This document shows, one piece after another, positions 1,397 through 59,852 of a stretch of 64,000 bases of DNA; position 1 is the first letter of the stretch, and each line of letters opens with the position of its first letter. Below the pieces are notes generated by a model. That model worked only from the letters and a program-made list of their open reading frames with translations. It searched no databases and was not told the DNA's origin. Where the stretch lies: the NCBI GenBank assembly GCA_951406725.2, contig OX597836.1:9176001-9240000 (forward strand), written 5' to 3'. Origin of the DNA: Octopus vulgaris (Eukaryota). The position numbers and the translations under genes are program-made.

Positions 1397-1630
1397 GACC
1401 ACGTGTGTATCATTGGTGATTTTCTTTCTTCATTTTCCCTTGAATTGAATTATTGAATTGAATTCCTTGGACCTTTCCCTTTTCTATGTTTCTGACGAAG
1501 AGCTCCACTCTAAATGTTAAATCCTCCTTCTTTCTTTCCTTTCCTGAGCGTAGCATCCAATAACTCTATATTTGTTCCACATCCTCGCGCTGTTGTGTTT
1601 TCTCTTTGTGTTTTCATATTTGGATTAACT
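1397..1630 (+). mobile_element. Penelope-like pLTR fragment in (TA)n with decayed hammerhead motif
   Basis: Similar to 45575-45772. Contains CTGACGA-A-GAGCTCCACTC-TAAATGTT at 1492-1518 (GAAA mutated to TAAA). Bounded by TA repeats. Confidence 0.55.
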
Positions 1631-1964
1631 ATATATAGGCACAGGAGTGGCTGTGTGGTAAGTAGCTTGCTTACCAACCATATGGTTCTGGGTTCAGTCT
1701 TACTGCATGGCACCTTGGGCAAGTGTCTTCTACTATAGCCTCGGTACTTAATTTATCGACCCCGAAAGGATGACGGGCAAAGTTGACCTCGGCGGAATTT
1801 GAACTCAGAATGTAATAGCTGAGGAAATACCGCTAAGCATTTTGCCTGGCATGCTAACGTTTCTGCCAGGTTGCCACCTTAAAAGACAACTTATTTTATC
1901 AACCCTGAAAGGATGAAAGGCAAAGTCAACCTCAGTGGAATTTGAACTCAGAATATATATATAT

Positions 1965-2565
1965 GTCGAACAGCTACTGTCGTGTATAGGACGGATCCGG
2001 CTATCAGCTGAATCCATAGTGAAGATTGCCGTGTCGACTTCCTTTAACTGGGAGGGCAAGGCAATTTTCCTTTGTCTTGTGGCTGTAGTGAAAGAGGTGG
2101 TATAGTGGACCCGTTTGAAAGGGCTAAGGTCAAACACTTTCCTCTTTGGCCAAGGCCTCAACAACTTTTTCAAGTTTCACTTGAAAAGGAAGGTGAGAGT
2201 AGAGAGGGAAGTGCTGTCTCATAGCAAGTTTACTGAAAGGTGGATAAATGTCGCTAGAATGGCCAGTATGAATGGATCAATTCTGAGGATACACCTGTGA
2301 TATAAAAAGGTAATATAAAAGGAGAAGGGGCTCTCTACCCCTTTTTGATCAGGCTCTCCTGGCTTTTATGGGGTTTGCCCACAAGTTACCTTTCAAAGCG
2401 CCTCCCCCTATTGAGAGTTTTATTTGTTATATTTTTCACTGTTATTTTAATGTTTATACGGACCTTTCTTTTAGGACAAAACCCTTTGTACTTTTCGTCC
2501 TGCCTTTGTCCTTACATGTTTTTCTTGATTTATGTCAGCCCTTGTGACCAATAAAACCAGAATTT
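1965..2565 (+). mobile_element. 5'-truncated L1/Tx1-like LINE 3' end (ORF2 C-terminus + 3' UTR)
   Basis: Frame reads VEQLLSCIGRIRL...VAVVKEVV*WTRLKG...FKFHLKRKVRVEREVLSHSKFTERW, resembling Tx1 ORF2 C-termini. AATAAA at ~2550 is followed by the (ATT)n tract. Confidence 0.6.
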
Positions 2566-3385
2566 ATTATTATTATCATTATTATTATTATTATTATTAT
2601 TATTATTATCATTATTATTATCATTATTATTATTATTATTATTATTATTATCATTGTTGTTATTATCATTATTATCATTGTTGTTATTATCATTATTATC
2701 ATTATTATTAATATCATTATTATTATCAGTATCATTATTATTATTATTATTACTATTATTATTATTATTATTATTATTATTATTATTATCATTATTATCA
2801 TTATCATTATCATTATTATTATTATTATTATTATTATTATTATTATTATTACTATTATTATTATTATTATTATTATCATTATCATTATCATTATTATTAT
2901 TATTATTATTATCATTATTATTATTATTATTGTCATTATCATTATTATTATCATTATTACTATTATTATTATTATTATTATTACTATTATTATTATTACT
3001 ATTATTATTATTATCATTATTATTATTATTATTATTATTATTATTATTATTATTATTATTATTATCATTATCATTATCATTATTATTATTATTATTATTA
3101 TAATTATTATTATTATTATTATTATCATTATCATTATCATTATTATTATTATTATTATTATTATCATTATTATTATTATTATTGTCATTATCATTATTAT
3201 TATCATTATTACTATTATTATTATTATTATTACTATTATTATTATTACTATTATTATTATTATCATTATTATTATTATTATTATTATTATTATTATTATT
3301 ATTATTATTATCATTATCATTATCATTATTATTATTATTATTATTATAATTATTATTATTATTATCATTATCATTATTATTATGT
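2566..3385. repeat. (ATT)n/(ATC)n compound microsatellite with internal ~250 bp duplication
   Basis: Direct reading. Landmark GTC at 2932/3184 and ATAATT at ~3100/~3346 recur at ~250 bp spacing. Confidence 0.95.
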
Positions 3386-4127
3386 TGTTGTTGTTGTAGG
3401 TCGTGTGTCAGTGAATTCCTAGTCTTATAATTGCTTGGTTGGAAATTGAACAAGAAAGTGTTGCATTGTAGTGAAACTATGTTACACATGAATGAGCACG
3501 ACATATCCATTTCTCCATACCTCTCTTCCTCACTTACTCCCCCCTCTCTCTGTCTCTATCTATCTATTTATCTATCTCTATCTCCCACTCACTCTTTCTT
3601 CCTCCCTCTCTCTCACCTTCTCTCTGTCTCTCTCCCTCTCTTTCTCTGTCTCTCTCTCTCTCTCTCTCTCTCCGTCTGCAACAATTTAGGTTAGCTCATT
3701 ATAAATTTTTCCATCAAGGTCATTTACAAATTGGAGTCAAACAAACCTTAAAAATTACTTACATATTTCATAAATGTCTCTGAATGGTTATATAAGACTT
3801 TGCACTTAGCGGTTCGGCAATAGCGACCGATAAGATAAGTACCAGCCTTTAAAACTTAATAGTTGGGGTGAATTCTTCAAAAGTGGTGCCCCAGCATGGC
3901 CGCAATCTAATGACTGAAACAAGAAGAAAGAAAAACAGAAAAAAGATATTATTTAAAGGAGTGGCTGTGTGGTAAGTAGCTTGCTTACCAACCACATGGT
4001 TCCAGGTTCGGTCCCACTGTGTGCCACCATGGGCAAGTGTCTTCTACTATAGCCTTGGGCTGACCATAGCCTTGTGAGTGGATTTGGTAGACGGAAACTG
4101 AAAGAAGCCTGTTGCATATATATATAT

Positions 4128-4700
4128 GTTAGTTAGTTAGTTAATTTGGTTCAAAAGCAAATAGCAAGGCCATGTAGGGGGACATGGAGTTAAGTACAGG
4201 GTGGTGTTCATGTAAAGAGTTCAGGCCACTTGAGGTCCAGGGAGGCTTTGAACAAAGCGGTCGTCGGCATCTTCACCATCTTGTCTGGCAGCTTGTTCCA
4301 CGGATCCGCAACCCGGACGGAGAAAGCTCCTCTCCTTCAATTGAGATGAAATCGTCGCAGGTAGAGCTTTTCGGAATGACCCCGCAGCCAATGCTCCGGA
4401 GCAGGAGTGAAGAACAGCTCTTTCGAGAGGTTACACTTCCCGCTTATGATGTTGTGGGCGAGAATGAGATCACCACGGCGGCGGCGTTTTTCCAGAGAAT
4501 AAAGGTCGAGCGTCCTCAGCCTTTCTTCGTAGGACAAATTTTTGAGACCATGAACCATGCGGGTAGCCAGCCTCTGGACTCTTTCGAGATGCTGTAGGAA
4601 TATGGTAGGAATATGGCTGCTGTGAGCATTCCGAATGACCGTCGAATCAAGAACAGAATTCCGCGTGCTTTGTTGGCAGCATGGATGCACTGGGCCGAAG
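4128..4700 (-). mobile_element. CR1-clade LINE 3' fragment
   Basis: LERVQRLATRMVHGLKNLSYEERLRTLDLYSLEKRRRRGDLI...LRGHSEKL, a classic CR1 ORF2 C-terminus. Ends in a (TAAC)n tail. Confidence 0.85.
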
Positions 4701-5140
4701 GCGAAAAGGAGGAATATATATATATCTGGCCTTTGTGCTGGTGGCACATAAAGAGCACCCACTACACTCTCGGAGTGGTTGGCGTTAGGAAGGGCATCCA
4801 GCTATAGAAACACTACCAGATCAGACTGGAGCCTGGTGCAGCCTCCTGGCTTCCCAGACCCCGGTCGAACCATCCAACCCATGCTACAATGGAAAACGGA
4901 CGTTAAACGATGATGATGATGATGATGTATGTGTTTGTGTGTCTGTGTTTGTCCCTCTGCCATCACTTGACAACCGATGTTGGCATGTTTACATCCCCGT
5001 AACTTATCGGTTTGGCAATCGAGACCAATAGAATAAGTACTAGGCTTACAAAAAATAAGTCCTAGGGTCGATCTGCTCAACTAAAGGCAGCACTCCAGCA
5101 TGGCCACAGTCAAATGACTGAAACAAATAAAAGAAAAGAA

Positions 5141-58045: not shown

Positions 58046-58772
58046 TTTACATATTTCAATTAAGAGATACATTAATGTATAGAACTGGCTGAACTGTTAC
58101 CGTGCCAGAGAAAATGCTTAGCATTTCTTCAGCTTCACATTCTGACTTCAGATGCCACTGGGGTCGGCTTCATCTTTCGTCCTTTTGTGGGTCAATAAAA
58201 TAAGTACCAGTTATGCACTGGGGTTAATATAACTGACTTAGATCCTCACCGAAATTGTTGGCCATGTGCCGAAATTTGTTACCAATTTAGAGAGACACTA
58301 GTGTTGGTTGGCCAGGTAAATACTATTTAGATTTGATCTTTTATCTTGTTTCAGTCATTACACTACGGCCATGCTGGGGCACCGCCTTGAAGAATTTTAC
58401 CCCTGTACCCCTCCTGTACTTATTGCTTTTAAATACAATATTCTATATTGTATTGGTCTTCTTTTTTTTTTTGCCAAACTGCTTAGTTACAGGGATGTAA
58501 ACACACCAACACCCGTTGTCAAGCAGGGGACAAACACAGACACAAAGACACACACACATCATACGATAGGCTTCTTTCAGTTTCCTTCTACCAAATCCAT
58601 TTGCAAAGCTTTGGCCGGCCCGAGGCTATAGTAGAAGACACTTGCTCAAGGTGCCACACAGTGGGACTGAACCCAGAACCATGCTGTTGAGAAGCAAAAC
58701 TTCTTAATCACACAGCCACGCCTGCACCTATTTAAAAAATAATTGAATTAATCACTGCTGAAAACTAATTAA

Positions 58773-58994
58773 CCCTTTTGTTACCAAACCGGCTGAAACT
58801 GGCTCTGGCTCTGAGTATAAATGTCTTGTTTTCATAAGTTTTGAATTAAAATCTTCCACCAAACTTTTAGTCACAATTTATGTTCCTAACACTGGCTGAA
58901 TGATAACGAAGTTATTTTACTAAATTATTTGTTATATTTAAAATTAATTGAAAGAAACACAGAGCGTCTCAACAGAAATACAGTAACGAAAGGG
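58773..58994. mobile_element. piggyBac-like MITE
   Basis: TTAA|CCCTTTTGTTAC...GTAACGAAAGGG|TTAA. Relatives at ~500-715, ~31470-32630, ~41177-41404. Confidence 0.75.
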
Positions 58995-59144
58995 TTAAAT
59001 GAATCTAAATGTAACCCTGTATATGTGATGAAAGTGGTCAGTATGAAACTAGAAACTACTGTTTTACTTTAAATTCACTGTCTCCCAACCAAATCTCTTT
59101 CCAGTGTCAATGTAACTAAGAGATATTTTCTATTTATTCGTCAG

Positions 59145-59265
59145 GTTTTGTAATTGCTGTGTTTGGCCATGAACCAGAAGATTCTCGTGGAAAATTTCAA
59201 GTTGAAGATTTCTGTGTTCAAAACCTTCCATTGCAACTCCAGCGTCCAGTCATCGAACACGACAG
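59145..59265 (+). CDS. POLD2: POLD2 coding exon 4
   Basis: gtcag|FVIAVFGHEPEDSRGKFQVEDFCVQNLPLQLQRPVIEHD-R|gttagt. Confidence 0.95.
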
Positions 59266-59572
59266 GTTAGTAGTATATATATATATATATATATAGGGGG
59301 AGAATTCACAAGAAAACAAAAGACGAAGACAGGTGGTGTAGACAACAAACAGATGTATTAGTATAATGCTAGGGAAGTGAAAAAGTCTTTAACATTTCGA
59401 GCCTACGCTCTTCTAGAAAGGAACACAGAAAGAAACAAGGGGAGAAAATAAAGAATGTGTAGTGGTTAGCGATATATATATATAATTATATGTATCTATA
59501 TGCATATAATTATATACATCTATATATATACACACATAGATATACATATATATATATATATAAATATATATA

Positions 59573-59852
59573 CCGGAGTAAACACATAAATGCGAAACAA
59601 GGTGGAAAAAAGAGTACTCAAATACCAGTGGTAGAGTAATATGCTTTATTTTAAGCACTGTTACTTTTTGCCGTTCATCAGACAGTTTTTGCTAGAATGG
59701 AACATATATAGAATGGAACATATATATTAATTCAATCTATAGATTGAATTAATATATATGTTCCATTCTAGCAAAAACTGTCTGATGAACGGCAACGAGA
59801 AACTCAGAGTAACAGATTTTGTTGAATTTTCTGCTGCTTAAAATAAAGTATA
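59573..59852 (-). mobile_element. Palindromic Penelope-like insertion in (TA)n with hammerhead (59774-59820, + strand)
   Basis: Arms 59641-59739 / 59740-59852 centred on TCTATAGA; tail 59573-59640. CTGT-CTGATGA-aCG-gcaa-CGa-GAAA-CTC-a-GAG-T-A-ACAG. Confidence 0.75.

Follow-up and report, generated by a model that had tools for sequence, protein, structure and literature searches.

Hammerhead motifs in a repeat-rich window

Minimal hammerhead ribozyme motifs are scattered over the stretch of Octopus vulgaris DNA analysed here, a microsatellite-rich window of 64,000 nucleotides on contig OX597836.1 of a 2.8-Gb genome, and they have the hallmarks of Penelope-like elements (PLEs). The initial annotation had placed at least 12 such motifs in the window and assigned them to PLEs, each site being listed by the lower coordinate of its motif. 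All 12 coordinates agree with the sequence, and genome-wide matches to repeat families back 11 of the 12 sites as well as a mirror motif at 15360, but not the site at 53274. The assignment to PLEs is likewise borne out by the layout of the motifs, by inverted pairs, a one-sided tail and (TA)n flanks, and by the fixed position of one family behind a gene for reverse transcriptase (RT) and GIY-YIG endonuclease.

The families of the window follow the type-I plan: stems I and II are present, and stem III is palindromic and very short. An extra base between A9 and stem II together with a G10.1-C11.1 pair is seen at 15404, 30287, 39851, 42719 and 45640, and the family of 57526 departs from this at the closing of stem II, with an extra A before GAAA or a C.A or U-A closing pair. 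Copies at 30282, 39818, 45636, 57526 and 59774 show the canonical core CUGANGA or UUGANAA, followed by GAAA and UH. Families with G and C at core positions 3 and 8 (G3:C8), with U for A at position 6 (A6U) or with C for U at position 4 (U4C) fall outside this rule, yet keep a pair between positions 3 and 8 (3:8).

An intact motif with the swapped core GUGAACA (G3:C8), a 7-bp stem I, a 5-bp stem II and the palindrome AAUAUU lies at 15397..15446 on the plus strand and constitutes the 3' end of an element with RT and GIY-YIG. It is part of a palindromic insertion (15177..15529) that is flanked by (TA)n runs and consists of two 3' stubs of the G3:C8 PLE joined head to head, in which a tail of ~58 nt (15177-15234) is present on the left arm only and the mirror hammerhead (15311..15360, minus strand) has lost G12. 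Further intact motifs are found at 30282..30327 (plus; core CUGAUGA, C3:G8, palindrome ACGU), whose family has 16 profile matches per Mb, and at 39818..39854 (minus; core UUGAAAA, U3:A8), likely a member of a sister family of the G3:C8 element. The motif at 42715..42750 (plus; core CUGUUGA) is intact by the measure of its own family, in which U at position 6 is the majority state and not decay. Single mismatches occur in the palindrome of 45636..45671 (plus; core CUGAAGA), which is related to 1488, and in stem II of 59774..59820 (plus; core CUGAUGA), which belongs to the same family as 42907, while a CUGAUGA hammerhead at 57526-57568 (plus) sits inside a unit of ~350 nt with a 47-nt terminal direct repeat that resembles a retrozyme monomer (57340..57736, plus).

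Other copies are broken. The motif at 1488..1522 (plus; core CUGACGA) has lost G12 and comes from a family with a short GAGC/GCUC stem II and the majority core CCGACGA (U4C); 12887..12929 (minus; core CUGAAGA) is a copy of the 30282 family with a small deletion at the junction of stem III and stem I; 42907..42952 (minus; core CUGACGA) has a changed A13 and belongs to a family with a 3-bp palindromic stem III; and 59387..59420 (minus) is a copy of the 42713 family, the one with U6, with a deletion in the core. Two features were absent from the initial annotation, namely a truncated mirror copy at 59658..59689 (minus), which is the left arm of a head-to-head pair with 59774, and a coreless inverted-junction fragment of the 30282 family at 59925..60000. 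Altogether 13 supported copies, about three times the average density, are found in the 64 kb: 5 agree with the motif of their family, another 2 deviate by a single stem mismatch and the other 6 are broken, with 7 on the plus and 6 on the minus strand. The majority of the motifs are short stubs in or adjoining (TA)n, frequently as inverted pairs with a one-sided tail, and this combination near microsatellites is a known signature of PLEs. Besides, SINE-like (short interspersed nuclear element) repeats are inverted around the palindrome at 15177-15529 (14508-16709; 86% over ~460 bp), and the U3:A8 stub abuts the end of a look-alike of a miniature element (39885-39935, minus), which we take to be of mariner type.

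The carriers had been counted as roughly eight unrelated sequences; we find instead seven families in about five unrelated groups. The sites at 1488 and 45636 share stem II and a weak BLAST similarity, the same applies to 42713 and 59400, and 15397 and 39818 resemble sister families.

That these motifs arose as chance matches in AT-rich repetitive DNA is a negligible prospect, and it is refuted for 11 of the 12 sites. A strict type-I descriptor with positions 3, 6, 7 and 8 left free found 4 matches with palindromic stem III and Watson-Crick 3:8 in the window (15404+, 30287+, 42719+ and 39851-), far above the mean of 0.18 and the maximum of 1 in 60 local dinucleotide shuffles, and a second descriptor gave 4 matches, where 50 shuffles averaged 0.10 and never exceeded 1. 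The remaining sites are damaged and therefore fail the strict scan, and profiles made from genome copies recover them. Searches of the genome DNA returned 398 to 3,101 candidates per family, of which 40 were scored in each case, at 89-99% identity. Such family-wide conservation also contradicts chance, as do the compensatory stem changes and the fixed placement behind PLE endonucleases described below. Loose descriptors do yield chance matches all the same, for instance at 53274, in an apparent A3:U8 motif and in several repeat clusters with an unpaired 3:8.

The string at 53274 (53275..53311, plus) is hammerhead-like in its letters, but it has no family and its stems do not form: no paired stem I adjoins the core and stem II is impossible or 2-bp long. 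Apart from itself, its 40 scored genome matches are confined to the initial 37 bases of the query, which lie upstream of the motif, and its profile finds 0 copies in 1 Mb. Cores of the form CUGUYGA had been proposed for the window, and although CUGUCGA is unsupported at 53274, the same core is present in the 42713 family. The apparent A3:U8 motif was rejected as well, other copies of the repeat in which it lies being devoid of GAAA. This repeat is a TA-inserted 545-bp tandem of 2.5 units (L245:619-1967), a common repeat that also occurs elsewhere in inverted and truncated form and has a PLE-like behaviour, and no type-I hammerhead was confirmed in it. A loose genome-wide G3:C8 pattern matched 75,311 times, a count not far above the 43,474 of a reversed control, and only its listed places were used.

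Pairing of positions 3 and 8 across families

A random megabase, composed of 100 evenly spaced 10-kb stretches, was scanned with the strict descriptor (positions 3, 6, 7 and 8 free, U or C at position 4). It contained 33 matches, 29 of them with a Watson-Crick pair at 3:8 (22 C:G, 3 U:A, 2 G:C and 2 A:U), while 10 shuffles of the same DNA gave 6.1 matches with 1.5 paired. The 4 unpaired matches are at chance level, and 3 of the 29 paired ones are due to chance on inspection (two from the 545-bp tandem at L245, one microsatellite), which leaves ~26 real ones. Clustering of all the sequence gathered produced 21 families, each represented by 3 or more distinct copies from no fewer than 2 loci. 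When position 4 is a pyrimidine, 14 of 15 families pair 3:8 (9 C:G, 4 U:A of which one is doubtful, and 1 G:C); pairing is found in 2 of 6 families with a purine there and in 29% of 570 singletons. Five of the six non-C:G families are paired (binomial p 0.005, a value that overstates independence, as families are related and several were fetched on purpose).

Sister families show how such a pair is exchanged. One swap, between G3:C8 and U3:A8, is accompanied by a compensatory change in stem II, and another, between C3:G8 and U3:A8, by a compensatory change in stem I (one locus, L214, with two mirror copies). Within the GAGC/GCUC group (87 copies), pair 4 of stem I is C-G in one family and G-C in another, with 66 copies paired vs 36 in shuffles. 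The 3:8 pair stays complementary across families, as had been anticipated. Three different 3:8 pairs within 64 kb had moreover been taken to imply selection for catalysis. Here, the covariation across families stands, but the window itself contributes three source families whose copies are decaying.

In a PLE hammerhead, C3G or G8C alone is reported to abolish activity in vitro, which is partly restored when both are combined (PMC11167929). In a type-III hammerhead subjected to pairwise mutagenesis, activity was low for every single or double change in the region, with the C:G to G:C swap reported as the sole rescue (PMC9901934); U3:A8 was thus not a strong rescue in that study, since only this one swap restored activity, and it is described elsewhere as natural and active (PMC3088659). 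Whole families in which both partners of the pair have been exchanged likely mean that a working fold has been kept by selection.

The number of copies seems to be large. The seven window families have 66 profile matches in the random megabase, which extrapolates to ~1.8 x 10^5 genome-wide, and the G3:C8 family accounts for 4 profile matches per Mb (~10^4 copies), with 19 places in the first 4.1 Mb of C1. Little of this is captured by standard annotation: Rfam has 0 matches in the window at the gathering score, and at E-values up to 5 no hammerhead is found among the best 150 of 318 matches, a list swamped by microsatellite matches to microRNA models. The suspicion that the system is under-annotated and that searches for CUGANGA miss a part of it was therefore well founded, and it is in fact most of it that is missed, only 7 of the 33 strict matches in the random megabase reading CUGANGA. 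Because of this ratio and of the missing Rfam scores in the window, the number of hammerheads in such genomes is likely underestimated several-fold. A squid genome paper, as far as its hammerhead content is reported, only counts 235 Rfam matches.

Coding elements linked to some of the motifs

The G3:C8 family leads directly to a coding PLE. At 2 of 30 loci matching its stub, the locus runs on upstream, past an (ATAC)n-rich stretch, to coding sequence that contains RT motifs, a CX3CxxC linker and GIY-YIG. When 30 loci were chosen by the endonuclease DNA alone, 27 had a G3:C8 hammerhead on the same strand, 0.5-1.4 kb downstream, with the core GUGAACA in every one of the 27, and 8 of the 30 had an inverted copy upstream. 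One locus has retained an open 839-codon frame with RT and, at its C terminus, GIY-YIG. The RT is assigned by its visible motifs and by BLAST similarity to the RT of a 781-amino-acid (aa) protein discussed below (E 3e-5), and the closest named homolog (56% identity), labelled Octopus vulgaris, is named as an RT-domain protein. The 3' ends of 87 copies fall into two classes, 38 short and 44 long, with 5 others, and inverted 5'-truncated copies, a one-sided tail and a microsatellite target all occur in this family. In contigs from four runs labelled as four organisms, no alternative letter reached 5% at either position 3 or position 8 of the core, while the loop was variable. Single-strand folding recovered stems I and II at 15397 and alternative folds for several copies; dimer energies were uninformative.

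Several described PLEs offer points of comparison. The PAc Poseidon element of Anolis has a hammerhead in a pseudo-LTR (long terminal repeat), two start sites of reverse transcription and AT-rich targets (Frangieh et al. 2024, PMC11167929). As far as described there, it shares the one-sided tail with the octopus G3:C8 element, although this tail measures 30-40 nt in PAc and ~58 nt in octopus. The C3G/G8C swap was engineered in PAc, whereas G3:C8 is the natural state of a family in octopus, and Poseidon is without the CX3CxxC linker found in the octopus protein. Such linkers, of the form CX2-5CxxC, precede the C-terminal GIY-YIG in the endonuclease-bearing clades Nematis and Neptune, whose inverted truncated copies, tail and (TA)n preference are also common to the octopus elements (Craig et al. 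2021, PMC8557442). Compared by eye with the published alignment, the linker of the G3:C8 protein resembles Nematis in its short spacing before GIY-YIG, but the protein differs in having a long insert between RT motifs and RWR/DKS motifs.

The U3:A8 family of 39818 appears to be close kin. At one of 30 loci, its motif lies ~700 bases behind a decayed endonuclease 43-47% identical to that of the G3:C8 element, and the DNA downstream of the 15397 and 39818 ribozymes aligns above shuffles (8 of 2,000 reach the score), so that the two are likely to represent sister families. A link of the ribozyme families to open reading frames (ORFs) for RT and GIY-YIG, as had been suggested, was accordingly recovered for G3:C8 and, at that one locus, for U3:A8, but not for five other window families. 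A separate PLE combines U3:A8 with a 781-aa frame for RT and GIY-YIG that is open in many copies; it has UUGAUAA in both direct repeats, and this motif was found at 19 of 30 GIY-YIG loci. This young PLE (L064:108-4947, at G000:C6:133343500 onward; also L061 and L063) possesses a second, overlapping upstream frame of 479 codons, and it is similar to Neptune in its linker spacing but differs by this extra frame.

Other ORF-linked motifs were encountered outside the window. In a Neptune-like family (L068:4306, L073, L245:8745 and L291:8695), CCGAAGA (U4C) is located downstream of the endonuclease at all 4 loci with a motif. A tie between the A6U family and a Neptune-like ORF was considered and rejected, both nearby copies being on the opposite strand. 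The inverted pair behind the stem I swap mentioned above is a U3:A8 relative of the 57526 family (L214:7757-8115), and 3.6 kb from it, on the minus strand, there is a decayed endonuclease of the type found in the G3:C8 element. Fragments of a further RT type (L067:5367-6146, L371:3-674 and L289) have motifs that resemble the Hydra clade rows of the published alignment.

Probable origin and possible function of the motifs

We consider it likely that the motifs are minimal type-I hammerheads in 5'-truncated tail stubs of PLEs and, likely, of non-autonomous derivatives, that their 3:8 pair (C:G, U:A or G:C) has been kept, likely by selection on active sources, and that their fold is predicted to self-cleave. 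Selection probably acts on the source elements and not on the stubs, because 6 of the 13 window copies are broken. Following published work on PLEs, a source element would be transcribed from a tandem, and its palindromic stem III would let two copies pair, probably helped by the element's own protein, so that the RNA is cut. The PLE protein would then introduce a nick into AT-rich DNA and prime reverse transcription from either of two neighbouring sites on the RNA, and these two priming sites might explain ends with and without the tail. Most insertions would stop early, leaving stubs of 100-350 bp that keep the ribozyme sequence and subsequently decay. The palindrome at 15177..15529 folds as one long hairpin, and since such a head-to-head pair would fold back and bury both motifs, the window copies are probably inactive; the source ribozymes would thus cut, while the stubs would be dead.

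Several observations weigh against this interpretation. For the coding element of the G3:C8 family, Pfam support is thin, since GIY-YIG scored only in a 269-aa fragment of a different copy (E 2e-5), a 594-aa piece was negative for it and the G3:C8 protein gave no RT match, and no direct repeat (pseudo-LTR) was found in 2.4 kb upstream of the ORF at the single near-full-length locus examined. There is no covariation within this family either: 14 copies genome-wide are changed at both 3 and 8, in mixed ways, with no compensated pair in excess beyond the double transition and no compensated sister subfamily. The one copy that ties the 39818 family to an endonuclease, at 1 of 30 loci, itself reads C3.A8. 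The 42713, 30282, 42907, 1488/45636 and 57526 families yielded no in-line ORF. The core differs less than the flanks when copies are pooled (23/1004 vs 259/4925, i.e. 2.3% vs 5.3%), a contrast that is only suggestive given that picking copies by profile favours conserved columns. This pattern would be as expected if selection acted on the source elements and their copies then decayed neutrally, but by family the core is less divergent in three and equal in two of five. U4C is the majority state of the 1488 family (10 of 13 random copies), besides being common in the 42907 family, and A6U that of the 42713 family (8 of 10 random copies), and single changes such as these are reported to have low activity in vitro (PMC9901934). 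Finally, hammerhead mutants of PAc still insert in vitro, and no RNA-sequencing ends were reported at the cut site (PMC11167929).

These core variants and insertion-competent mutants are what one would expect if, in the same elements, the folded shape were conserved as a signal for the PLE protein to bind or to prime from, with cleavage weak or vestigial in many families. The majority U4C and A6U cores of abundant families and the ORF-linked CCGAAGA family with its 4 loci would agree with such a role, and so would the weak activity that minimal PLE hammerheads are reported to have even as dimers (PMC4209133). Nevertheless, we regard this as unlikely, given that 3:8 belongs to the active fold and is precisely what stays complementary. 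G5, A9, GAAA and a non-G cleavage base are also kept in the aligned families, though partly fixed by the descriptors. Among natural core variants, covariation to U3-A8, A6C with low activity and U4C in a viroid have been described, the latter keeping enough activity in vivo for the viroid (PMC3088659). We infer selection for catalysis, a view that the majority U4C and A6U cores, with their predicted slower cleavage, complicate.

The families without an in-line ORF might alternatively be separate non-coding elements with circular RNA (non-LTR retrozymes) that are copied by PLE enzymes and are not the ends of coding elements. Non-LTR retrozymes are described as non-coding, terminally redundant units of about 350 nt that contain a type-I hammerhead (PMC7229834; bioRxiv 10.64898/2026.07.22.740005), all of which the carrier of 57526 has, and the majority of its 30 loci extend past one unit length. 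The window copy, however, comprises 1.1 units and one hammerhead, not the two or more consecutive hammerhead-bearing units that define retrozymes, and tandem arrays are rare: copies with a same-strand neighbour within 1.2 kb number 4 of 42 in the 57526 family and 2 of 64 in that of 42713. Three of the five families concerned have frequent inverted pairs (42/72, 20/28 and 12/42). Furthermore, ORF-bearing copies are a minority even for the G3:C8 stub (2 of 30), which makes their absence among 30 loci a weak argument. We thus hold a retrozyme origin to be quite improbable, while noting that it is compatible with PLE-derived stubs as the best explanation for these families.

The surroundings of the motifs comprise two probable host genes and further repeats. 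Exon-like pieces of a gene for the DNA polymerase delta small subunit extend over 52211-63636 (plus), with the sites from 53274 to 59774 between them, and a NIDO-domain exon (31131-31571) and a later transmembrane-like exon (37557-38069), both on the plus strand, probably form one receptor-type gene. Tandem arrays occupy 43693-44336 (19 bp, 34 copies), 27555-27836 (42 bp, 6 copies) and 16931-17354 (184 bp, 2.3 copies). RT fragments or C-termini of LINE type (long interspersed nuclear element) were recognised by eye at 18135-18830 (minus), 53496-53837 (plus) and 6456-6734 (plus) and are unrelated to the hammerhead carriers. Several copies between the polymerase exons are on the strand of that gene, as domesticated host ribozymes in introns could be. 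This is very improbable for individual copies of the window, considering that 6 of 13 are broken, that their orientation is mixed, that tens of copies per Mb occur everywhere and that two families decay at the neutral rate of their flanks.

Much of the general picture behind our preferred reading, that of truncated PLE tails, is already known. PLE hammerheads occur as thousands of mostly solo copies per genome, in many families and with opposite-strand pairs, and a U3-A8 variant has about 1,300 matches in Schistosoma mansoni (Cervera and de la Pena 2014, PMC4209133). PLE hammerheads, their diversity within a genome, opposite-strand pairs and U3:A8 are hence not new, and the octopus motifs agree with those of that study in the type-I layout, the short stem I, the extra base after A9 and the palindromic stem III. 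They differ by a G3:C8 family, by families with majority U4C and A6U and by the extrapolated ~10^5 copies; portions of the main text of PMC4209133 make no mention of G3:C8, U4C or A6U, one of its supplements has no octopus entry, and neither G3-C8 nor A6U is named in passages of the text of PMC3088659. What the window adds is the test of 3:8 across families, the swaps between sister families and the U4C and A6U families. We found no study of PLE hammerheads in octopus. Nor did we find a natural G3:C8 in the literature, where a 2017 article by Lunse, Weinberg and Breaker may list G3:C8, U4C or A6U; going by its title, that article reportedly deals with small hammerhead variants near PLEs that cleave as dimers.

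The hammerhead is present in every canonical PLE clade, yet catalytic mutants insert in vitro. Families that have swapped both partners of 3:8, just as in the rescue control of biochemists, provide comparative evidence that the active fold matters in vivo, and the element that couples an open ORF to a G3:C8 ribozyme of its own would allow this to be tested directly. As a tentative, more far-reaching possibility, the octopus genome may represent a natural core mutagenesis of the hammerhead, with ~10^5 copies in at least 14 PLE-related families and three of the four Watson-Crick 3:8 pairs, among them, in an element active until recently, a natural G3:C8 not published before, and where U4C and A6U might be tolerated through chaperoning by the PLE protein. 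If so, hammerhead cleavage would be under selection in the PLE life cycle in vivo, though dispensable in vitro, and standard descriptors would miss about three quarters of animal PLE hammerheads.

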